10,909 nucleotides of DNA. Source: a virus. Lineage: Duplodnaviria; Heunggongvirae; Uroviricota; Caudoviricetes. A program made the translations under genes and the position numbers. The notes under the pieces are model-generated. The model was not told where the DNA came from. It was given only the letters and a program-made list of their open reading frames with translations, and did not search any database. Of this stretch, positions 55 through 10,909 are shown piece by piece. Where the stretch lies: IMG/VR virus record IMGVR_UViG_2690316278_000007. The stretch is one strand, 5' to 3'. The first letter of the stretch is position 1. Every line of letters starts with the position of its first letter.

Positions 55-273
55 TCACATCCACATAATTTGCTGCCCTGACGGCAACGGGTGCGGCCTT
101 ACGGCGTGGACTTCTCCCGGCTTCACGATGTATCGCTGTACCGACTCATAAGTGATGAACGTGGCGCTGCAATTCACGTTCTGGCACTGGTGATAACGCT
201 CTTTTGTCGTGTCAGTGATATAGCGACTTGTACGCGCATGTGCGGCATGCTGGCATAAAGGACAATGAAACAT
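55..273 (-). CDS. ogr: Ogr, zinc-finger activator of P2 late transcription (72 aa)
   Basis: Minus-strand ORF whose product from the ATG at 273-271 reads MFHCPLCQHAAHARTSRYITDTTKERYHQCQNVNCSATFITYESVQRYIVKPGEV..., with Cys pairs CPLC and CQNVNC typical of the Ogr/Delta zinc finger. AGAGG Shine-Dalgarno lies about 8 nt upstream of this ATG. The ORF track extends to a TTG at 336, which I regard as a caller artefact. Position directly after gene D matches P2 order. Confidence 0.9.
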   Translation of the reverse strand: MFHCPLCQHAAHARTSRYITDTTKERYHQCQNVNCSATFITYESVQRYIVKPGEVHAVRPHPLPSGQQIMWM

Positions 274-354
274 CGCGAGCACCTCTTCCGGTTTTGTTGA
301 TGGTGCCATTTTAGTTAATTTATCCTTATAAAACAAACAGATAAATAAACCACG

Positions 355-1615
355 TCACTCATCATCTTCTGTTTCGTACTCCACATCAGAAAGCCTTACC
401 TCAAGCTCCAAGGACGTCGTGAAGCCGCTATTATTGAGACAATGTGTCACCTTAGTGATGGTCCAGTCCTGCTCGTCTATGACGCGCTTAAAGCCTGACA
501 CTTTAACCGGTGTTTCCGTGTAAATATCTGCACGACCGGTAGCCAGGCTGATGGAGAACTCCGCTACACCCCGTTGCAGTTTATCCCACTTCGCCTGAGC
601 GGCGCGCATGGCCTGCGCTTTTGTGGCATATACCGTGGTCAGGGCAAAAACGTTGTCAGCTTCACCGGCCATGTATTCACCTTCGCGCGCTTCCGGTACT
701 TTTGGCGCTTTCTTCTGCGTGACCGGTTTCGCTTTCGGGTGCTCCAGTGCGCGCAGGTGTTTTTCTTTCTTTTTGCGTTTCAGTTTTACCTTCTGCTTTT
801 GCGGCTTCGGGTCTTTGGTGTGTAACCACTTTGCCGTTACGCCGGTGTAAGCTCCACGGTCAGCAATCGCAAAATGATGACGGTCGCCGTCGCTGCGGGT
901 GATGGTAATCTGCGGGATTTTTTTACCGCTGGCCGTCNNNNNNNNNNNNNNNNNNNNNNNNNNNNNNNNNNNNNNNNNNNNNNNNNNNNNNNNNNNNNNN
1001 NNNNNNNNNNNNNNNNNNNNNNNNNNNNNNNNNNNCCCCCTGCCCCGCTTTGAGAAACAGCAGTTTTCCCATTTTTACCGACACCTCGCCGCCGTTGCGT
1101 TCAGCAAGACGGGTCAGGAATTTCGCATCAGACTCCTGCGACTGGTCGATGTGTGGAATTTTTATTCCGGCCAGTGACGGAGCGACACTGGCTTCCAGCC
1201 TGTTACGGGAGGCTATCGCCTCAACAATCGCACCGAGCGTAATGTCATGCCATGAGCCTTCACGGCGGGAATTGAGCGTCCCGCGAAAATCTGCACTCCG
1301 GGCGCGGATGGTGACCACATCCGGCGCGCCCCGGTGTTCAACCTCATCAACGGTAAATTTCCCTTTGCATACCAGGGCAAAACCTTTCCAGCCGATATAC
1401 ACCGTCAGGACAGCGCCACGAACCGGCAGCCCGACCTGCCCGTCGGCATCGTTCAGTTCAATATCAAGCTGGTCAGCCTCAAAGCCCCGGTTATCCGTCA
1501 GGGTCATGCTCATCAGACGGTCGCTGATATTGCCGGTAATATCCCTGCTGTCGAGCATCAGCATGTAATCCGGCGTCAGCGTACTGCCTGCATCAAATGT
1601 CAGCGCATCCAGCAT
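355..1615 (-). CDS. D: Tail protein D (gpD), interrupted by the N-run 938-1035
   Basis: N-terminal part is ORF 923..1615 (MLDALTFDAGSTLTPDYMLMLDSRDITGN...KMGKLLFLKAGQG). Downstream of the N-run, one continuous minus-strand frame runs from 936 to the TGA at 355-357 (TASGKKIPQITITRSDGDRHHFAIADRGAYTG..., a Lys-rich linker, then MAGEADNVFALTT...EVRLSDVEYETEDDE). The two halves are in different frames only because the 98-nt N-run is not a multiple of 3. The ATG of D at 1615-1613 overlaps the TAA of U (TAATG). Confidence 0.85.
938..1035. other. Run of 98 N (masked or unsequenced) inside gene D
   Basis: Read directly from the sequence. The X-runs in the ORF track here are artefacts of this block. 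Confidence 1.
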
Positions 1616-2076
1616 TATCCCGCCCCCGTCATACCCGTGAATTTAGTCGCCATACTGCCAGCCTTACCGATGAGCGATTCCGCCTGTTTACCGATATCGC
1701 CATAAAGCGCGGCCAGTGACTCATCAACGCGGGTGAGCGACAGCGTAAAATCAATTTTCCGTGGTGTGCCGTCTGCAAAGAAAATACTCCCTGTTTCACT
1801 CACCTTGCTGATGACATACATGCCGTAAATCATGCCGGTGCCATCCAGCAACGGCCACGCCCGGCCTTCCTCTGCCATCAGTCTGAGCGTGGTCATCGTC
1901 AGCTTTCCGCCAGTCAGTTCGGGATAAAGCACACCGGCAAGTGTGATGTTCTCCTCACCTACACCGAGAAACTGATAGGCATCCCGTTTACCGATACGGG
2001 AATTTGACGGCCAGCGATAATCTGATTCACGCTGCATGGTCTGGTGTGGCAGCGTCTGGCGCATAAAAACAAACAT
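1615..2076 (-). CDS. U: Tail protein U (gpU); true 5' end may lie in the N-run starting at 2083
   Basis: 153-aa minus-strand ORF (MFVFMRQTLPHQ...LIGKAGSMATKFTGMTGAG) located between T and D as in P2. Its stop overlaps the D start. The frame remains open upstream of the ATG at 2076 into the N block, so the start is uncertain. Confidence 0.8.
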   Translation of the reverse strand: MFVFMRQTLPHQTMQRESDYRWPSNSRIGKRDAYQFLGVGEENITLAGVLYPELTGGKLTMTTLRLMAEEGRAWPLLDGTGMIYGMYVISKVSETGSIFFADGTPRKIDFTLSLTRVDESLAALYGDIGKQAESLIGKAGSMATKFTGMTGAG

Positions 2077-2082
2077 ACCTAA

Positions 2083-2581
2083 NNNNNNNNNNNNNNNNNN
2101 NNNNNNNNNNNNNNNNNNNNNNNNNNNNNNNNNNNNNNNNNNNNNNNNNNNNNNNNNNNNNNNNNNNNNNNNNNNNNNNNNNNNNNNNNNNNNNNNNNNN
2201 NNNNNNNNNNNNNNNNNNNNNNNNNNNNNNNNNNNNNNNNNNNNNNNNNNNNNNNNNNNNNNNNNNNNNNNNNNNNNNNNNNNNNNNNNNNNNNNNNNNN
2301 NNNNNNNNNNNNNNNNNNNNNNNNNNNNNNNNNNNNNNNNNNNNNNNNNNNNNNNNNNNNNNNNNNNNNNNNNNNNNNNNNNNNNNNNNNNNNNNNNNNN
2401 NNNNNNNNNNNNNNNNNNNNNNNNNNNNNNNNNNNNNNNNNNNNNNNNNNNNNNNNNNNNNNNNNNNNNNNNNNNNNNNNNNNNNNNNNNNNNNNNNNNN
2501 NNNNNNNNNNNNNNNNNNNNNNNNNNNNNNNNNNNNNNNNNNNNNNNNNNNNNNNNNNNNNNNNNNNNNNNNNNNNNNNNN
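2083..2581. other. Run of 499 N covering the T 3' end / U 5' region
   Basis: Read directly from the sequence. Only a 37-nt readable island (2582-2618) separates it from the next N-run. Confidence 1.
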
Positions 2582-4783
2582 TCACGGCAACGGTTCAGGG
2601 TGTCCTGGGTGGCTTTGANNNNNNNNNNNNNNNNNNNNNNNNNNNNNNNNNNNNNNNNNNNNNNNNNNNNNNNNNNNNNNNNNNNNNNNNNNNNNNNNNN
2701 NNNNNNNNNNNNNNNNNNNNNNNNNNNNNNNNNNNNNNNNNNNNNNNNNNNNNNNNNNNNNNNNNNNNNNNNNNNNNNNNNNNNNNNNNNNNNNNNNNNN
2801 NNNNNNNNNNNNNNNNNNNNNNNNNNNNNNNNNNNNNNNNNNNNNNNNNNNNNNNNNNNNNNNNNNNNNNNNNNNNNNNNNNNNNNNNNNNNNNNNNNNN
2901 NNNNNNNNNNNNNNNNNNNNNNNNNNNNNNNNNNNNNNNNNNNNNNNNNNNNNNNNNNNNNNNNNNNNNNNNNNNNNNNNNNNNNNNNNNNNNNNNNNNN
3001 NNNNNNNNNNNNNNNNNNNNNNNNNNNNNNNNNNNNNNNNNNNNNNNNNNNNNNNNNNNNNNNNNNNNNNNNNNNNNNNNNNNNNNNNNNNNNNNNNNNN
3101 NNNNNNNNNNNNNNNNNNNNNNNNNNNNNNNNNNNNNNNNNNNNNNNNNNNNNNNNNNNNNNNNNNNNNNNNNNNNNNNNNNNNNNNNNNNNNNNNNNNN
3201 NNNNNNNNNNNNNNNNNNNNNNNNNNNNNNNNNNNNNNNNNNNNNNNNNNNNNNNNNNNNNNNNNNNNNNNNNNNNNNNNNNNNNNNNNNNNNNNNNNNN
3301 NNNNNNNNNNNNNNNNNNNNNNNNNNNNNNNNNNNNNNNNNNNNNNNNNNNNNNNNNNNNNNNNNNNNNNNNNNNNNNNNNNNNNNNNNNNNNNNNNNNN
3401 NNNNNNNNNNNNNNNNNNNNNNNNNNNNNNNNNNNNNNNNNNNNNNNNNNNNNNNNNNNNNNCCCCGAAAATGGTTTTCATGTATTCGGCCTGCTGGGCA
3501 GTACCGAGCCGGTTTTTCTCAAAGCTGGCCTGCATTTCTTTCAGAATGGTAAATACTGGTCGGGTGTTTCCCTTACTGTCTGAGGTTTTCACGCCAAGCT
3601 CTTTGAGTGCATCCCATGCTTTTCCAGTCGGTGCCTGCAGGCGACTTAACACGGCACGGCTTCCCGTCCCCGCCATTGAGCCTGTGATTTTTGCATCATG
3701 CAGCGCCCCGACCATTGCGGCGGTTTCTTCAATGCTGACACCGGCATTTTTTGCCACTGGTGCGGCATAGGTCAGCGCATCGCTCATGCCGTCAAAATCA
3801 GCGGCGGTTTTGTTCATCGTCATGGAGAGAACATCCCCGATATGAGCGACCTTATCGTTTGAAAGCTGAAAGGCGGATTTCATCCCCATCAGCAGGGCGG
3901 CGTTTTCTTCCATTGTGCGGCGGTTCGCCAGCGCCATATTCAGCGTGACCGGCGTTGCCGCCTGAATGGCATCAACATCCCCACCCGCTTTCGCAATGAT
4001 AATCTGTGCACCGGCCGCATCATCCGCTGAGGCGGCGGTGTTGTCACCGAGCTGGCGCGCCTGCTTGCGGAGTGCAGCCATTTCGGCGGAGTCTTTTGCC
4101 ACACCGAGCACAGCCTGCAATTCTGAGTTTTTCTGCGCAAACTCATAACCTGGCATCAGCAGCTTAACTCCGGCTATCGTTCCCGCAGCAGCAATCCCCA
4201 CACCGGCAGCGCCCACTGAGGCCATATTTCCGGCCAGTTCCTTTCCGGCCTGATAACGCTGTTTGACTGCGTTAAGTTTTGCCTGTTGCGCACTGACACG
4301 CGCCAGCGCGTCACGCTGCCGGTTAAGCTGGGCGGTGGTTTCACTGATACGGTTTTTCAGTCCCTGCTCATCATGTGCAAGATTGCGGGTATTAATTCCC
4401 ACAGCGGCCAGTTCCCGCTGCTGGCGTTTAACGGAATCTGTCAGGCGGTTATATTTCGCCTGTAAGTCCTCCGCCGCACGCTTTGCGGATTCCAGCACTT
4501 TCGCCTGAGCACGGGTCGGGCGTTCGGTGTTTTTAAACTGTGTGGCAAGGGCTTCGGCCTCCTGCCGTGCCTTTTCAAGTGCATGACCAGTCACGGCGAG
4601 CTGTGCACTGGTCTTGCGGAATCCCTCAATACGGGATGCGTGACCGTTCAGCTCGCGCAGTGATTTTTGTGTTTCCCGGATATCCCCCGACAGCAACTTA
4701 CTCGCTCTGCGGATGGATTTAAACGGGCGGGACGCCTGGTCAACAGCCCTGAGCAATACCTGTAATTTTACATTGTTACTCAT
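2582..4783 (-). CDS. T: Tail tape measure protein (gpT); only 3463-4783 (N-terminal ~440 aa) is readable, and the 3' end is hidden in the N-runs
   Basis: Minus-strand ORF starting ATG 4783-4781 (MSNNVKLQVLLRAVDQASRPFKSIRRASKLL...). It is long, Ala/Gln/Arg-rich and predicted helical, and follows E/E' as in P2. The start overlaps the E' stop (ATGAGTAA). The left coordinate is taken from the ORF track and is not a real gene end. Confidence 0.8.
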   Translation of the reverse strand: MSNNVKLQVLLRAVDQASRPFKSIRRASKLLSGDIRETQKSLRELNGHASRIEGFRKTSAQLAVTGHALEKARQEAEALATQFKNTERPTRAQAKVLESAKRAAEDLQAKYNRLTDSVKRQQRELAAVGINTRNLAHDEQGLKNRISETTAQLNRQRDALARVSAQQAKLNAVKQRYQAGKELAGNMASVGAAGVGIAAAGTIAGVKLLMPGYEFAQKNSELQAVLGVAKDSAEMAALRKQARQLGDNTAASADDAAGAQIIIAKAGGDVDAIQAATPVTLNMALANRRTMEENAALLMGMKSAFQLSNDKVAHIGDVLSMTMNKTAADFDGMSDALTYAAPVAKNAGVSIEETAAMVGALHDAKITGSMAGTGSRAVLSRLQAPTGKAWDALKELGVKTSDSKGNTRPVFTILKEMQASFEKNRLGTAQQAEYMKTIFGXXXXXXXXXXXXXXXXXXXXXXXXXXXXXXXXXXXXXXXXXXXXXXXXXXXXXXXXXXXXXXXXXXXXXXXXXXXXXXXXXXXXXXXXXXXXXXXXXXXXXXXXXXXXXXXXXXXXXXXXXXXXXXXXXXXXXXXXXXXXXXXXXXXXXXXXXXXXXXXXXXXXXXXXXXXXXXXXXXXXXXXXXXXXXXXXXXXXXXXXXXXXXXXXXXXXXXXXXXXXXXXXXXXXXXXXXXXXXXXXXXXXXXXXXXXXXXXXXXXXXXXXXXXXXXXXXXXXXXXXXXQSHPGHPEPLP
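2619..3462. other. Run of 844 N inside the tape measure gene
   Basis: Read directly from the sequence. Confidence 1.
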
Positions 4784-5203
4784 TCGTGTTTCCGCTTCGC
4801 CTGAGCGCCTTTTCGCGCCATGTGATGAGTTCGGTCAGGCTCATGGGATACAGTTCTGATGGCGGCCAGTGAAATATCACTGCCACATCCGCCATCAGGT
4901 CATCGACCGACAGATTTTTCGGAAGCGTCACTGCACCGAGTTCGGCGACAAAAAACCGACCACCTTACCGGCCAGCGCCACAAGGTCAGGCAGTTCCAGC
5001 GCGGCGACTTCCTGCTCGGTCAGCATCGGTGCCGTCATGCGCGGCAGCACCTTAATCAGTGCATCGACTTCTGAGTTTGCGACCGCAGCCAGACTGACAC
5101 CGCGCAGCGTCCCCGCACTGGGTTTCATCAGCGTGACCTGTTCGATAACCTGCTCACCACGCTTGACCGGATTGTCCAGGGTAATCACATTTTCTTTGTT
5201 CAT
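4776..5203 (-). CDS. E+E': gpE+E', tail assembly chaperone made by programmed -1 ribosomal frameshift (about 142 aa)
   Basis: Slippery heptamer T_TTT_TTG on the minus strand (coords 4955-4949) sits 6 codons before the E stop. I translated the -1 frame from 4949 by hand and it stays open for 57 codons (VAELGAVTLPKNLSVDDLMADVAVIFHWPPSELYPMSLTELITWREKALRRSGNTNE) to a TAA at 4778-4776, overlapping the T start codon. 85 + 57 = 142 aa. Confidence 0.75.
4928..5203 (-). CDS. E: Tail assembly chaperone gpE (91 aa, zero-frame product)
   Basis: Minus-strand ORF MNKENVITLDNPVKRGEQVIEQVTLMKP...KVVGFLSPNSVQ, ending TGA at 4930-4928. Position between FII and T matches P2. Confidence 0.9.
   Translation of the reverse strand: MNKENVITLDNPVKRGEQVIEQVTLMKPSAGTLRGVSLAAVANSEVDALIKVLPRMTAPMLTEQEVAALELPDLVALAGKVVGFLSPNSVQ
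4949..4955 (-). other. Slippery heptamer TTTTTTG for the E/E' -1 frameshift
   Basis: Plus strand reads CAAAAAA at 4949-4955, which is T TTT TTG on the coding strand in the E zero frame (codons GGT TTT TTG). Confidence 0.7.
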
Positions 5204-5259: not shown

Positions 5260-5778
5260 TTACAGGCCGATATTGCGGCGGTGTTGCTCCAGCCGGTCGA
5301 CGCCGTTCACCTTCTCAATCATGTTGATGGTGTCGATTTCGACCAGCTCCTTACCGTCCATCGTCAGCCGGAAATAGGTGCAGACCACGGAGATTTTCGA
5401 CTCGGTGTCTTCTCCCTGTTTACCCTCGCCGGTGTCGATTTCTTTCTGACGGCCACGCATGACCACCTCTACGGCCACCGTTTCGCCGGTATCGTCACGC
5501 TGGTAAGAGCCTGCAAAACGAATCGGCACGGCATCCACACCGGTTGCGGCGTAAAGCTCCCAGATAACCGAATCCGGGAAGCCCCCGAGCGACCACTCCA
5601 TTGACAGCGCATCGTCATCAAGGCCGAGGTCTACCGGTGCGCTTCCGTTCATCCCCGCACCGCGATAGTTTTCGAGTTTACGGGTCAGTTTTGGCAGCGT
5701 GACGGACTTTGCAACGCCCTGATAGCTGTAGCCGTTCAGAAAGACGTTCATTAACTTGAGTTTGCGCGGCATTGCCAT
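5260..5778 (-). CDS. FII: Tail tube protein gpFII (172 aa)
   Basis: Minus-strand ORF MAMPRKLKLMNVFLNGYSYQGVAKSVTLPKLTRKLENYRGAG... GGAG Shine-Dalgarno in the 12-nt spacer after the FI stop. Size and position as in P2. Confidence 0.92.
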   Translation of the reverse strand: MAMPRKLKLMNVFLNGYSYQGVAKSVTLPKLTRKLENYRGAGMNGSAPVDLGLDDDALSMEWSLGGFPDSVIWELYAATGVDAVPIRFAGSYQRDDTGETVAVEVVMRGRQKEIDTGEGKQGEDTESKISVVCTYFRLTMDGKELVEIDTINMIEKVNGVDRLEQHRRNIGL

Positions 5779-5790
5779 CGGTCAGGCTCC

Positions 5791-6981
5791 TTAATTGCTG
5801 TTAACCGAGGTGACCAGATTTGCCAGGTATTTATCGGTAATACGCTGGCGCAGGGTCAGGTTTTCAAGAGGAGGCACCGGGGTATAGTCGTAGTCGATAT
5901 ACAGTTTTCCGGCCTTGAGGGTTTCCGCATCGTTGGATTCTTCGCTGAACCAGCAGGTCGCATCCACGATATAGCCGTTTGTTTTCAGCTCACGGAATTT
6001 GGCATTGATGCCGTCAACGATGTCGCGAATCAGCGTTGCGGTGATGGGCTTGTCCACCGCCCACATGTGCGCCTCAGCCATCGTGTCGGCCAGCACCTGC
6101 GCGGTGCGGGTGTAGTTTTCAAAGAGGAACAGCGGGTCATCAGAGCAGGTACGGTTACCCCAGAAGCGGAAACCGTCACGGCGAATCAGCGTTGTGACGC
6201 CTGACTCGTTAAGCAGGTCAGCATCGGTGCCGGACTCCTGCAAATCCCAGAATACGGACGCGCTGATGCCGGTAACACCGTTCACCCCGACGTTGGACAG
6301 CGTTTTATGCCAGCCCTGCTCCTGGTCGATTTTAGCGCGCAGACCCAGCGCACGGGCGGTGGCATACGCGGTGGCGGTGGTACTGGCGACCGTATCCCAT
6401 GCGAGGAAATCCGGCCAGATGACCATCAGCTCACGCTGGCTGAAATTCTGACGGTAGGCTTTCACCTCGGAAACGGTCTTACAGCCCCATGCGCTGATAT
6501 ACCCGAAAGCGCGCAGCTTCTGACAGACTGATGCCAGTGCAACAGCCACCTCTTTGGTGTCCAGTCCCGGCACGCCGAGAATACGCGGTTTAACACCGGT
6601 TACCGACTCCGCCGCCAGCAGGGCTTTCAGTCCGGTGTACTGACCGTTTTCGTCGGTGGTGCCGATGATATTGGAAACGGTCTGCGCGAGTTTCGTTTCC
6701 TCGTCGTCGCCGGTGCCGTCTTCCACACGCACGACAACGGTGACCGGTTTTGACTGGTCGGCGATGGCCTGCAACGATGCCGCCAGCGTGCCTTTTTTAC
6801 CGGCCTTTGCAATTGCGCTCTGCACATTGGTAATCAGCACCGGTTTATTGAGGGGGAAGGTTTCCGCATCCGCATCGCTGGCCGTGCAGACCATGCCGAC
6901 AATGGCAGTGGATACGGTGGAAATGACGCGGGTGCCGTCGTTAATCTCCAGCACCTGCACGCCGTGATGATAGTCACTCAT
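5791..6981 (-). CDS. FI: Tail sheath protein gpFI (396 aa)
   Basis: Minus-strand ORF MSDYHHGVQVLEINDGTRVISTVSTAIVGMV..., first gene of the FI-FII-E-T-U-D operon. GGAG lies about 10 nt upstream of the ATG at 6981. Confidence 0.92.
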   Translation of the reverse strand: MSDYHHGVQVLEINDGTRVISTVSTAIVGMVCTASDADAETFPLNKPVLITNVQSAIAKAGKKGTLAASLQAIADQSKPVTVVVRVEDGTGDDEETKLAQTVSNIIGTTDENGQYTGLKALLAAESVTGVKPRILGVPGLDTKEVAVALASVCQKLRAFGYISAWGCKTVSEVKAYRQNFSQRELMVIWPDFLAWDTVASTTATAYATARALGLRAKIDQEQGWHKTLSNVGVNGVTGISASVFWDLQESGTDADLLNESGVTTLIRRDGFRFWGNRTCSDDPLFLFENYTRTAQVLADTMAEAHMWAVDKPITATLIRDIVDGINAKFRELKTNGYIVDATCWFSEESNDAETLKAGKLYIDYDYTPVPPLENLTLRQRITDKYLANLVTSVNSN

Positions 6982-7073
6982 CCGTTTAACTCCGTGGTTA
7001 ATGGGTGCAACTATTTTCTGTTGGGCAGTGCATGAGACGCTATTTGACCTGGCTGGTCAGTGGATGAAACAAC

Positions 7074-7105
7074 AGATAAAGAAAATGCGGGCAATTCGCC
7101 CGCAT
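7074..7105 (-). terminator. Candidate intrinsic terminator acting on leftward (minus-strand) transcription just upstream of the FI promoter
   Basis: Perfect 8-bp GC-rich stem ATGCGGGC (7085-7092) / GCCCGCAT (7098-7105) with a 5-nt loop. On the minus-strand transcript it is followed directly by UUUUCUUUAU (7084-7074). No comparable U-tract follows on the plus strand. Confidence 0.45.
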
Positions 7106-7122
7106 GTCCTGATTTGTACACA
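7105..7122 (-). promoter_or_regulatory. Candidate Ogr-dependent late promoter element (TGT-N12-ACA dyad) for the FI operon
   Basis: TGT (7105-7107), 12 nt, ACA (7120-7122), about 130 nt upstream of the FI start. P2/P4 late promoters are known to carry a TGT-N12-ACA dyad centred near -55. A chance occurrence is not excluded. Confidence 0.4.
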
Positions 7123-7320
7123 CTCATTTTCCGACTGACAGTTTACATAGCCCAAACGCTATCAAATCTGACAGCCTGCTATGAGCGAAAAGCGTTAAAT
7201 CTCACGATATCTGCTACCGGGAAAAATTTCGATTATCTTCGATGGGAACTTTGATAATGTAGTAAATGCCATTTTCAGCGATCACTTTTCAAGCGTGTGT
7301 AAATGATTAATGTTAAAAAA

Positions 7321-7350
7321 TTGACTTCACTGAAATAAGGTTGCTAGTAT
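7321..7350 (+). promoter_or_regulatory. Candidate sigma70 promoter for the cargo ORF (extended -10 type)
   Basis: TTGACT (7321-7326), 18-nt spacer, then TGcTAGTAT with TG at 7342-7343 and the hexamer at 7345-7350. An A/T-rich tract lies upstream (7300-7320). AAGGA Shine-Dalgarno (7381-7385) sits 6 nt before the ATG at 7392. Confidence 0.5.
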
Positions 7351-7391
7351 TTTTGGAGCAACCATTAATGTTTTTTATTTAAGGAATGTAA

Positions 7392-8810
7392 ATGACATAC
7401 GCACTGATTGATAATTCAACTCTAACTGCAGTCCAAAGAATCGAGGGGAAAGTAAAAACAAGATCGAAGGACTCAGTAGATACAGACATAATAGCATTTG
7501 AGAACTATATACAGTCTATTTTGTTCTATGATCACGTTATCGCGGTTGATGATTATATTCCAGAGTACCGTGGGAGTAGGATTTCAAGTTTCAGAGAGAT
7601 ATTATTTCTTGATAAAGCACAATATGGGTTGGATGAAATTGAAAGTGAAGCAAAAAAAATATCTGATGCATTGAAACCTAAAATTCGTGGTGGAACATTT
7701 GTTAATGACGATTTTAAAAAACTAATTGAACTTCTTCAGACACATATCATATGTACATGGGACATTAGTTCAAGTGTTTATCATCTAACACTGAAGAACT
7801 TATCTGATGGAGGTAAGGAGTTTGAAAAATATGGTAACATTGCTGCTGCCATTTTTTCAGAACTGCGTGATGCTGCTGAGTCTGGTAATAGAACAAATGG
7901 CGATGTTGAACTTCTCGATCGATTTGGCAACCCTATTCGCAAGGGGTACAAAGTTCCCGGAGCAAAATGGGGGGATGGCACATCTGCTGGTGAAGCATCA
8001 GATGCAATCAAAGCATTCGTGGCTTCGCTTGTATGGCTGGCTAATCGGGCAGTATTTTATTCTCTCACAGCTAAGTACCTTCAAGCAGATACTTTTTTAT
8101 ATCCATTACGTCAGGCGTATCAACAGACATATTTAAGCCAAAACTGTCAGTATGGTTTTGACTATGCTAAACATATTGTAGAAAACTTTTCCACTTCGTT
8201 AAGTCATGATCTCATTGATATTCATTCTGGTGGTAAAGCTGTAGCAACAGCAACTTCGCTTCCTTTATTTTCGGCATGGCTCGCAAAAGAAACTGGTGAT
8301 CCAAGTTGTATTGTTGAAGCTGCTTATAACATAAGGGACAACAACGAATTTGTAAGGGCCCGTGAGAAAATGCGAGAAATAAAGCGCTTGTTTGATGAAA
8401 ATGAATTGCCTCAAGCTAATAAGTCAGTAAGAGCATTGCTTACTGAAGTATCGAAAGAATCAGATTATATTCGAACTAAGTATGGGCTCAAGACTAGACA
8501 AGGTGTACCTGTAACTAAGCTTGTACATGTATACAATACTGTTGCGGCTATTAATTCCCTTCCGAAACTACCGACCTTTAATTTTAAAGTTAAAGTTCCT
8601 GATTTCTTATATGATCTTAAAAAACCCAAGGGGTTTCGTGCTCTCTATCGAAATTTGACTAATGATCTTTCTACTGTGTGGTCGTTAGGAGAAGCTCGAG
8701 ATATTCTTGGAAGTAAAGTTGTGATAGATAATCATGCAAGAATTTACAGTCCGAAGCATGAAGAACCGCGTTTCAAAAACTCTCATTCCCCATATAAGAG
8801 CCCGATGTAG
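7392..8810 (+). CDS. Hypothetical 472-aa protein of unknown function; AT-rich cargo gene in the G-FI (P2 Z/fun-type) slot
   Basis: Uninterrupted 1419-nt ORF, ATG 7392 to TAG 8808-8810, on the strand opposite to all flanking phage genes, with its own promoter and SD. G+C is about 35-38% in the two 60-nt lines I counted, against about 60% in a sampled FI line. No Walker A, no obvious HEPN Rx4-6H, no clear PD-(D/E)xK motif and no evident transmembrane segment. Confidence 0.85.
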   Translation: MTYALIDNSTLTAVQRIEGKVKTRSKDSVDTDIIAFENYIQSILFYDHVIAVDDYIPEYRGSRISSFREILFLDKAQYGLDEIESEAKKISDALKPKIRGGTFVNDDFKKLIELLQTHIICTWDISSSVYHLTLKNLSDGGKEFEKYGNIAAAIFSELRDAAESGNRTNGDVELLDRFGNPIRKGYKVPGAKWGDGTSAGEASDAIKAFVASLVWLANRAVFYSLTAKYLQADTFLYPLRQAYQQTYLSQNCQYGFDYAKHIVENFSTSLSHDLIDIHSGGKAVATATSLPLFSAWLAKETGDPSCIVEAAYNIRDNNEFVRAREKMREIKRLFDENELPQANKSVRALLTEVSKESDYIRTKYGLKTRQGVPVTKLVHVYNTVAAINSLPKLPTFNFKVKVPDFLYDLKKPKGFRALYRNLTNDLSTVWSLGEARDILGSKVVIDNHARIYSPKHEEPRFKNSHSPYKSPM

Positions 8811-8812
8811 CT

Positions 8813-8843
8813 TAAGAAAAAGACACGCCCACCTTGTGCGTCT
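8813..8843 (-). terminator. Candidate terminator for the H-G late transcript (weak hairpin plus T-tract on the minus strand)
   Basis: On the minus strand, ACGC/GCGU pairing (8825-8841) is followed by UCUUUUUCUU (8823-8813), ending right at the cargo stop codon. The stem is imperfect. Confidence 0.35.
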
Positions 8844-8848
8844 ACTTC

Positions 8849-8890
8849 TGGCACAGAGCGGACTCTCAGATTAGGCTTTACTCTGTGCCA
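8849..8890. other. 10-bp perfect inverted repeat between the convergent cargo and G genes
   Basis: tGGCACAGAG (8849-8858) and CTCTGTGCCa (8881-8890) with a 22-nt spacer. Possibly a bidirectional terminator or structured element; no clean U-tract on the plus strand. Confidence 0.4.
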
Positions 8891-8924
8891 TAGATATGTA
8901 AGCTCACACCAGAGCTCATACAAC

Positions 8925-9452
8925 TTATTGCGGCATTTCCGGCCATTCAGGATTTGCAGGATCCACACGACTGACCAGAACACTGTAGCGTTCCCATGCC
9001 TCCAGTCGACTGCGCTCCTCATCTGTTGCCATATTCAGCCTGACAGCGCGCTCCAGCGGCAAAATCACGGATTCAGCATCTGCAAGAAGTCTGGCTTTCC
9101 GATTTTCTGCCTGCTGCTGCAATTCCTCTGCCGTATAAATTCGTTTAATCACTGTACAGTCCTTAAACATCCAGTTCCCTGAAATGTCCGCCCGTCGGTT
9201 AGCAGTAATATCCGGCACTTCAACAACACTTAATCCATCCGGTCTGATAGCTGTCACATCCTTTTCCACATAGCGGATAATATTATCTTTGTCGTACGCT
9301 ATTTTTATCGTGTCATCAGCAAAATACTTTTGTTCTTCGTACCAGTTCTTACCATCTTCTGAAAAAAACCAGACAACATCAAAGTCCTTTGTCAATTGAT
9401 ATTGTTCAACCGTTTTTGGATTACCTGCCGTTATATTTATCAAATGCTGCAT
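8925..9452 (-). CDS. G: Tail fibre assembly protein gpG (175 aa)
   Basis: Minus-strand [47 protein letters not shown]... lying directly downstream of H (H stop TAA, 3-nt spacer, G ATG), the arrangement typical of P2. Confidence 0.88.
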
Positions 9453-9455
9453 AAA

Positions 9456-10909
9456 TTATACCTGTGCCACGTTATACCAAGTCCCGTTAATGTATTTCTG
9501 CACCGGTCTGTAATATACGCCACCAATGTTATCGGCAGAGTTTGAGCCGGTATCCTGAACAATAATGCCGGAATATACACACCCGGACGGTGCCTGATGT
9601 GTCCATGTCATACCATTGTTCGCAGGTTTGTATGTGGCAGCACCACCAAGCCGGATATCCCGGACATAGCGTGAATCAAAGTTGCCATAGTTAGATGGTG
9701 ATACCTGCCCGTTAACAGCAAAAGTGATGCTGTTATCTGTATTTCTCTGACTGTAAAAATGCCAGCCTGCATCATCACCTAATTCAGCCACCACAGGACG
9801 ACTTGAGTTTCCCCACAAATTGAATGCGGCTTCCTTCGTGGATGTATTGCTGCTGCTGACCGTGAACTTTTTCCCGCTACCGGCACGTACTTTGGTACTT
9901 GAGACAATATCACCTGTAACACTCAGGCCATGCCCCATTGACACTCCGCCATTGGCGTTATTGATAGTCAGCGGTCTTAAGCCGTTCCATGTCCCAAATT
10001 TATCGCCAGAGGCCGTCAGCATTAAATATGTGCTGCCGCCATCATTCCTGATAAAGAATCCATAATTGCCATAAGCAATGCGCAGACCATTAGCACTGAG
10101 TGATGTAATTTCACCTCTTGAACGGAGACCATAAGCGGAGCTGAGTGATAATTCTTCCTGAGCGTCATTGTTTCCTGTCGCCCAGCGAATTACCCCGCCC
10201 TGAACTGTTTCATGCCAGATAGTATCTCCTTCTCCACCACGAAACTTTCTGAGATATTTTTTGCCGCCTCTGGTGCCTGAACATAAGGCCGTAGACATAT
10301 AGGCATTCTGGCTTCCGCCATCCTGATTAATCGTTCCGGTCATTGAGTCGCCCTGACGATTCCAGTCACGACGCCAGCCGGGGGAGTAGCCGTCCCCATG
10401 ATTTATGTAAGTGAATTGCGCGCTGGTTGTACCGCCACCGCTTGATGTTGTTGGCGTGGTCACTCGGATAGTGATTGCAGATTTAGTTCCCATGACCTCG
10501 ACGACACAACCAGCCAGGTGGATATCACCACATCCGGTATCCGTAATGATTTTGTTATTTGCATATGACCAGGAGCCTTTGCACATCCAGTACGGATGAT
10601 TAAATGCACCACGGGAATCCAGCCATTCAATAAACTGAGCGGTTGTCCAGTTTCCGGCTTCAGTGCTCAAAGCGCCGCTATAAGCACGACAGGCACCGAT
10701 ATTTTTCGTGAAGGTATCCTTTCCCGGAATATCCGCACCGTTCTGATCTTTCTGAAGACGTTTTTCAGCATTGTCATAGGCAGACTTCACTGCTTTTGGC
10801 GTTGCGGCCAGCGTTTCAGAATCGCTGTTGATGGCACTACTTAGCTGGACAAGACCTTTTCGCGCTGTGGTGGCATCCTGTGCAGTGTATTTCCCGTTAG
10901 CAAGGTCAT
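9456..10909 (-). CDS. H: Tail fibre protein gpH, 5'-truncated by the window edge (C-terminal ~484 codons present)
   Basis: The frame stays open from the window edge (codon at 10907-10905) to the TAA at 9458-9456. The edge-proximal translation DLANGKYTAQDATTARKGLVQLSSAINSDSETLAATPKAVK... looks like P2-type H. The M at 10790 in the ORF track is an internal GTG, not the start. Confidence 0.85.
   Translation of the reverse strand, partial: DLANGKYTAQDATTARKGLVQLSSAINSDSETLAATPKAVKSAYDNAEKRLQKDQNGADIPGKDTFTKNIGACRAYSGALSTEAGNWTTAQFIEWLDSRGAFNHPYWMCKGSWSYANNKIITDTGCGDIHLAGCVVEVMGTKSAITIRVTTPTTSSGGGTTSAQFTYINHGDGYSPGWRRDWNRQGDSMTGTINQDGGSQNAYMSTALCSGTRGGKKYLRKFRGGEGDTIWHETVQGGVIRWATGNNDAQEELSLSSAYGLRSRGEITSLSANGLRIAYGNYGFFIRNDGGSTYLMLTASGDKFGTWNGLRPLTINNANGGVSMGHGLSVTGDIVSSTKVRAGSGKKFTVSSSNTSTKEAAFNLWGNSSRPVVAELGDDAGWHFYSQRNTDNSITFAVNGQVSPSNYGNFDSRYVRDIRLGGAATYKPANNGMTWTHQAPSGCVYSGIIVQDTGSNSADNIGGVYYRPVQKYINGTWYNVAQV

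Follow-up and report, generated by a model that had tools for sequence, protein, structure and literature searches.

A plus-strand cargo gene between G and FI

The stretch of DNA analysed here, referred to below as the window, comprises 10,909 nucleotides of a virus of the Caudoviricetes (IMG/VR record IMGVR_UViG_2690316278_000007) and is the P2-like tail region of an Escherichia coli prophage. Between the phage genes G and FI, an interval that corresponds to the Z/fun slot of phage P2, it carries a single long open reading frame (ORF) on the plus strand at 7392-8810, here called the cargo gene, which starts with ATG and encodes a protein of 472 residues. It is the sole long plus-strand ORF between G and FI, while the neighbouring phage genes are all on the minus strand, exactly as a previous reading of the window from its letters alone (the sequence-only reading) had described. 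The protein is identical to WP_000220361.1, annotated as 'hypothetical protein', and falls into phrog_13435, a group of unknown function. The dN/dS (ratio of non-synonymous to synonymous substitution rates) of the gene relative to its homologues is 0.13 for Pantoea, 0.13 for Serratia and 0.06 for Pectobacterium. Because of these low values and the 282 or more full-length homologues retrieved, ORF 7392-8810 is a real gene under purifying selection and not a chance ORF.

The G+C content of the cargo gene is 0.379, with 0.27 at third codon positions. The sequence-only reading had set its composition against about 60% in the tail genes; this contrast holds for the F operon (0.55-0.61 for FI, FII, E and T) but is smaller for G and H, which reach only 0.44-0.50. 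In each of the nine hosts examined, the gene also exceeds its flanks in A+T content, which bears out the proposed horizontal acquisition, and this recurrent AT-richness combined with the low dN/dS points to a functional and frequently transferred gene. Comparison with P2-like phages by BLASTN places the swapped module at 7195-8838. Backbone homology to NC_070905, a P2-like phage with other cargo, stops at 7188 and restarts at 8839, and homology to the reference P2 genome NC_001895 stops at 7194 and restarts at 8845. These breakpoints delimit a swapped module of about 1.65 kb that holds the cargo gene alone.

Upstream of the ORF, a consensus scan identified a candidate sigma70-like promoter on the plus strand at 7321-7350 (TTGACT-18 nt-TAGTAT with an extended -10 TG), whose -35 element is partly kept in the Pantoea and Serratia cassettes. 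A Shine-Dalgarno motif, AAGGA, can be read from the sequence at 7381-7385 on the same strand, 6 nt ahead of the ATG, and AAGGA/GAGG is retained in homologous cassettes. Both elements had been taken as the gene's own signals, and matching sites are indeed present, but the region contains four sigma70-like sites where 5.5 are expected from shuffled sequences, a count not above chance; the site at 7321-7350 thus fits a promoter and is no evidence by itself. A search for a hidden partner found no second same-strand ORF of at least 20 residues upstream of the cargo gene inside the cassette.

Hairpins lie on both sides of the gene and are read on the minus strand. At 7085-7105, a strong terminator-like hairpin followed by a U-run (folding free energy, dG, -17.9 kcal/mol; z -4.3) stands immediately upstream of the place that is annotated in P2 as the binding site of the pF activator (Ogr). 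This hairpin may shield the F operon from transcription that reads through the variable slot. Two neighbouring hairpins occupy 8812-8889, where the 3' ends of G and the cargo gene converge (dG -29.8, z -2.5): one at 8850-8889 with a stem of 9-10 bp, and a second at 8822-8842 with a U-tract after it on the minus strand. A simple terminator scan missed them; they probably mark the end of the H-G transcript and possibly act in both directions. The sequence-only reading had listed hairpins on either side as features of the gene, and both fold well, but comparison with P2-like phages carrying other cargo, in which the hairpins at 7085-7105 and 8850-8889 are conserved, assigns them to the P2 backbone and not to the cargo.

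The Z/fun slot as a variable hotspot

In reference P2, the slot spans 15354-17434 and holds fun(Z), which encodes a 528-residue protein, is oriented opposite to G and FI and is annotated as blocking T5. The same opposite-strand layout, flanks and backbone are found in the window, so that the equation of its G-FI interval with the P2 Z/fun slot is confirmed. Direct comparison of fun(Z) (NP_046777.1) with the cargo gene shows a shared slot, a shared orientation, a single large ORF in each (528 versus 472 residues) and module breakpoints that lie within a few nucleotides of each other in the backbone. The proteins are nevertheless unrelated, without similarity at the sequence or profile level (BLASTP E 0.12; hhalign probability 1%), and neither Pfam nor PADLOC has a match for Fun(Z).

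The slot had been proposed to be variable, and the comparison with other Peduovirus records agrees. All 133 records that match the query 6700-9500 cover the flanks only, corresponding to 41% of the query. Inspection of eight other Peduovirus records (reference P2 and seven more) revealed eight different contents: Fun(Z); a pair of 85- and 233-residue proteins; a 197-residue protein; a 251-residue protein; a 368-residue DUF3800 protein that is the PADLOC candidate PDC-S51; a 360-residue SMEK_N protein, also counted among the PADLOC candidates; HAD and NUDIX hydrolases; and pseudogene remnants. Among complete E. coli genomes, 343 have the left backbone stub and only seven of them carry the cargo gene, at 99.7-100% identity. 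One of the carriers, strain 89-3156, has it in an apparently intact P2-like prophage beside yegQ/ogrK, where it is annotated as the hypothetical protein WP_000220361.1. The same prophage encodes at 36698-38170, between a replication gene and the portal gene, an 'ATP-dependent nuclease' that is OLD-like by annotation, and it appears to hold cargo at both P2 hotspots.

These data also bear on whether the protein could serve P2-like phages as a conserved tail component, structural or morphogenetic, a view for which the position of the gene between tail genes is the one argument. Distribution refutes this reading, whose probability we consider negligible: only 7 of the 343 E. coli genomes that have the neighbouring backbone contain the gene, and tblastn found no homologue in the 50,697 deposited phage records of INPHARED. 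The gene is also found in many phyla outside phages, lies on the opposite strand and has a foreign composition.

The hotspot as such is established. The slot has been named a P2 defence hotspot, with three validated PD systems found there and fun noted (Vassallo 2022, PMC9519451), and both the Z/fun locus and a tail-gene hotspot are listed by a 2026 study in Nucleic Acids Research (NAR; PMC13586616). Rousset 2022 treated the other P2 hotspot, old/tin (PMC9122126), which is reported to carry partition systems and toxins as well. Judged by the sequence comparisons, the cargo gene is a horizontally acquired, self-contained accessory gene in this known Z/fun hotspot.

The genes around the slot were identified by Pfam and all lie on the minus strand. 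The right flank is gpG, the tail fibre assembly protein, at 8925-9452 (Caudo_TAP, E 2.8e-33), followed by the tail fibre gene H at 9456-10790. The left flank is gpFI, the tail sheath, at 5791-6981 (Phage_sheath_1, Phage_sheath_1C and Gp18_domIII_N), beyond which lie FII, the tail tube, at 5260-5778, E at 4928-5203, U at 1615-2076 and D in two pieces at 923-1615 and 355-672. Runs of N occupy 938-1035, 2084-2581 and 2620-3462 and mask most of the tape-measure gene. Their lengths are unreal, since the window has 1381 nt at 2083-3462 where an otherwise 100% identical contig (L020) has 1153 nt, and the listed ORFs 2036-3583 (plus strand), 2079-2585 and 2582-4783 (both minus strand) are artefacts of these runs. 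We rejected the possibility that gpD is a pseudogene, because its apparent split into two ORFs is produced by an N run.

Distribution and mobility of the family

Searches with the cargo protein returned no match in Pfam or NCBIfam and no PHROG match outside phrog_13435, and a search of the PDB sequences, with the single sequence as well as a profile, gave noise only. Across 70 family members, no Pfam family recurs at E <= 10, and no paper on WP_000220361 or phrog_13435 was found in the literature. No characterised homologue emerged from Pfam, NCBIfam, PADLOC or the PDB sequences. The suggestion of the sequence-only reading that the protein may be uncharacterised is in line with phrog_13435 being its only match; as far as databases and full-text searches show, the family is uncharacterised and missing from the defence catalogues.

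A word-indexed search yielded the 282 homologues. Among the 120 matches listed, nearly all have 471-474 residues and most exactly 472; these are 51-100% identical to the cargo protein and all annotated 'hypothetical'. Their hosts include Pantoea, Serratia, Pectobacterium, Acinetobacter, Halomonas, Vibrio, Psychrobacter, Desulfotalea and Citrifermentans. When 1.84 billion representatives were searched exhaustively with a profile, no more than 325 proteins reached E <= 1e-3; they are about 460-475 residues long or fragments, and none is fused to another domain. The family is carried by 47 of 185,579 species representatives: many Gammaproteobacteria (12 Pseudomonas among them), Betaproteobacteria, Nitrospira, Cyanobium, Desulfobacterota and Verrucomicrobiota, and further Chloroflexi, Clostridia, Negativicutes, Bacteroidota, Leptospirales and Armatimonadota. 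The proteins of the 12 Pseudomonas species form a distinct clade with about 33-37% identity and a length of about 466 residues, and several Pseudomonas loci have large neighbouring ORFs of similar size, of about 710-1320 residues.

In the contexts seen, which are prophages, integrative and conjugative elements (ICE), integrative and mobilisable elements (IME) and islets flanked by insertion sequences (IS), the gene travels alone. No neighbour gene is conserved across 57 loci, and among the 134 nearest-neighbour ORFs of 48 further loci no Pfam family occurs in more than four. The neighbours among these 134 ORFs include Hachiman HamB (two loci, E 1e-250), type I/II methylases, SMC, ResIII and PIN proteins. 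In Desulfotalea, the gene adjoins MksBEF; in Pectobacterium, its neighbours are a HEPN-Toprim protein and toxin-antitoxin pairs, joined in one strain by a CTD1/MComp1/SMC (Lamassu-like) set. The Citrifermentans copy lies beside a TrwC fragment, that of Halomonas beside ParDE, and that of Serratia between ICE conjugation genes, where it matches window 7181-8827; the Tenderia copy is IS-flanked and the Acinetobacter copy sits among housekeeping genes. Within IMG/VR, only three of ten contigs, near-identical ones from E. coli, have the gene in the G/FI slot. Two copies with 90% identity lie between a DNA methyltransferase and DinI, and a 45% relative adjoins a methyltransferase and the large terminase. 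In IMGVR UViG_3300048919_000398 (L025), a prophage different from the P2-like one, an 89%-identical copy is found about 360 nt downstream of a BstA homologue (1062-1973; phrog_6287, E 2e-101) and beside a UmuC-like polymerase. BstA is a prophage abortive infection protein and, like the cargo protein, a prophage-borne single protein; the two are unrelated, are adjacent in this one locus only, and share defence only as a candidate role of the cargo. Plasmid carriage is rare, with a 58.6-kb plasmid of Clostridium kluyveri and megaplasmids of P. aeruginosa as the cases observed. A 39% relative on IMG/VR UViG_2718218017_000001 (58,581 nt) and a 38.5% relative on the C. kluyveri plasmid NZ_CP018336.1 probably belong to one replicon, possibly a phage-plasmid.

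The Pantoea copy is the most informative about transfer. It resides in an element that encodes an integrase and a relaxase and has an OLD-like ATPase-Toprim nuclease close to the gene, and in this IME, which is not P2-like, positions 7769-9515 of a Logan contig (SRR10136596) match window 7161-8906 at 86.5%. The match comprises the cassette and about 30 nt and 65 nt of P2 backbone on either side, including the hairpin at 8850-8889. Such backbone stubs indicate that a mobile element of another kind took up the cassette from a P2-like hotspot, which makes the Pantoea copy a footprint of cassette export.

Carriage by phages, ICE and IME, elements that keep anti-defence genes in their variable regions, would also suit a counter-defence (anti-immune) gene with which the phage or mobile element overcomes the defences of its host. 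We judge this improbable, more so than any of the other functional alternatives discussed below: with 472 residues the protein is large compared with what is generally known of most anti-defence proteins, the candidate sigma70 promoter opposite the late operons suggests expression in the lysogen instead of at entry, and the gene is also present in IS-flanked or chromosomal islets that contain no element to protect.

Predicted structure and possible function

The structure of the cargo protein was predicted with AlphaFold2 from an alignment of 70 sequences with identities down to 21%; the resulting model (pLDDT 81.2, pTM 0.85; predicted local distance difference test and template modelling scores) replaced an earlier one built from close homologues, which had a pLDDT of 65. 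Residues 1-137 (7392-7802, plus strand) form a beta-alpha-beta domain with a pLDDT of about 90, in which most of the near-invariant polar residues are located. The remaining C-terminal part of about 335 residues (7803-8807, plus strand) consists of long helices and small sheets, and no structural or sequence relative of it was found. A Foldseek search against the PDB gave nothing at E <= 0.001. In the model, the N-terminal domain has the three-layer alpha/beta/alpha arrangement of the PIN fold.

Residue conservation in the divergent alignment falls mainly on polar residues of the N-terminal domain, with D7 at 99%, N8 and T10 at 90%, R16 at 99%, G19 and D32 at 100%, E37 at 96%, D47 and D53 at 91%, D54 and Y55 at 96% and R63 at 99%; W123 and S128 are other conserved positions of this domain. 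The near-invariant acids are concentrated in residues 1-55. In the C-terminal part, W215, R219, Y223, P238, R240, P291, R324 and G433 are conserved. The very end of the protein, K-S-P-M (residues 469-472, 8796-8807), is conserved as well, which is unusual for a protein end: P471 is present in 89% and M472 in 84% of the divergent alignment, and the motif is invariant among members with at least 50% identity. This conservation suggests a functional tail, for instance in autoinhibition or recognition.

Mapped on the model, D7 is at the C-terminal end of beta-1 in the motif 'IDNST' (family 'IDNxT'), which resembles the PIN motif 'DTN'. D32 and E37 are in the long helix after beta-1, where the invariant acid parallels the glutamate of VapC; the mutants deposited in the PDB served to cross-check the catalytic residues of Shigella VapC, D7 and D98. 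The sequence-only reading had recognised no enzymatic motif, and profile searches likewise match none, but the predicted N-terminal domain with its near-invariant D7, D32, E37, D47, D53 and D54 qualifies that statement. At the sequence level, no signal was found between the cargo protein and the PIN nucleases (VapC toxins, PAE0151, Nob1; Pfam clan PIN). The 70 family members have no Pfam PIN match at E <= 10, and the N-terminal domain, compared by hhalign with an alignment of 118 VapC sequences, gave a probability of 0.3%, a weak negative given the narrowness of that alignment (at least 73% identity). The domain also differs from these nucleases in being joined to a unique C-terminal region of about 335 residues. 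According to the model, we describe the domain as PIN-like in its fold, with a probable but non-canonical acidic site, and do not file the protein as a member of a PIN family.

PIN-like folds are typical of toxins, toxin-antitoxin modules adjoin several of the loci, and the gene is carried by ICE and IME. A selfish toxin-like or inter-element competition factor, acting in addiction or in the exclusion of plasmids, satellites or related prophages, would account for these points. Neither a cognate antitoxin ORF of the VapB type was found in the cassette nor a conserved neighbour beside it, unlike in VapBC, and the protein is three to four times the size of VapC, so that it would need to regulate itself; we consider this explanation improbable.

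What favours an anti-phage defence or exclusion role of some kind is the combination of carriage by mobile elements, defence genes in the neighbourhood and the PIN-like fold, and we hold such a role to be somewhat the likelier case. The cargo also resembles the single-gene systems of P2 hotspots (the PD-T4, PD-T7 and PD-lambda series of Vassallo 2022, Rst_DUF4238 of Rousset 2022 and the PADLOC PDC candidates) in being a stand-alone AT-rich gene with a candidate promoter of its own, and its homologues, like theirs, also occur in defence islands and other mobile elements. In the mechanism we propose, the lysogen would transcribe the gene from the gene's own promoter, convergent with G and divergent from the FI operon as is fun(Z), and its expression could be damped by H-NS as for other AT-rich cargo of a P2-like prophage. 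The PIN-like nuclease at the N-terminus would be kept inactive by the C-terminal residues, about 335 in number, until these sense a phage cue. The nuclease would depend on metal and, by analogy with PIN proteins of the VapC type, would most likely be an RNase acting through D7, D32/E37 and D53/D54. Once activated, it would cut RNA (DNA being less likely) and halt phage development, amounting to abortive infection. The nuclease mechanism specifically, which derives from the structural model, is tentative, and we would not put it at an even chance.

Several observations weigh against this interpretation. In the model, no conserved acid follows beta-4, the usual place of the third and fourth PIN acids, where the family has GG at 100-101; the conserved D47, D53 and D54 follow beta-2 instead. 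The missing acid after beta-4 and the lack of a link to PIN profiles are the reasons for restricting the label to 'PIN-like in fold'. Unlike the P2-hotspot single-gene systems, the cargo protein matches none of the 5,027 models of PADLOC-DB v2.0.0 even at E <= 1. Several loci have ordinary neighbours, and the association with defence genes consists of plain counts and is suggestive, not statistical. H-NS can moreover silence AT-rich cargo of a P2-like prophage (bioRxiv 10.64898/2026.09.05.749240).

The absence of a PADLOC match and the occurrence of some homologues among housekeeping genes would fit a non-defence 'moron', that is, a lysogenic-conversion or host-fitness gene with a regulatory, stress or nucleic-acid metabolic function in a permissive slot. 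The slot also hosts genes without an obvious defence role, such as the HAD and NUDIX hydrolases, and partition systems and toxins are likewise reported from the old/tin hotspot. The extremely patchy distribution across phyla, the strong conservation, the mobility as a single gene and the defence neighbours fit conflict systems better, and we regard a moron as unlikely, though it is the alternative to be taken most seriously. The explanation that we prefer as a whole, a factor that acts as a single protein in anti-phage defence or exclusion, through a PIN-like nuclease effector and a C-terminal sensor, has in our estimate slightly better than even odds of being correct.

The hotspot and the swappable defence cargo of P2-like phages are already known, and the gain from the present analysis is incremental for that reason; the protein family is the new part. 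With its 1.4 kb, a candidate promoter of its own and an E. coli host, the gene makes a cheap experimental candidate, and it holds no conceptual surprise. Should the proposed role be true, the family would be a new single-gene defence family, present neither in PADLOC nor, according to these searches, in the literature, and it would represent a divergent PIN-like effector branch that is joined to a sensor module of unknown kind. With its P2 stubs, the Pantoea copy is a concrete trace of the export of the cassette from a phage hotspot to another kind of mobile element. In the widest form of this proposal, to which we give a little less than an even chance, the cargo protein may be the founding member of a phylum-crossing, hitherto unrecognised family of single-protein immune factors that combine a divergent PIN-like nuclease, whose set of acids (D7, D32, E37, D53 and D54) is non-canonical, with a C-terminal sensor of new fold, and P2-like hotspots may be the donors from which the cassette reaches other mobile elements, such as the Pantoea IME, together with stubs of their backbone.

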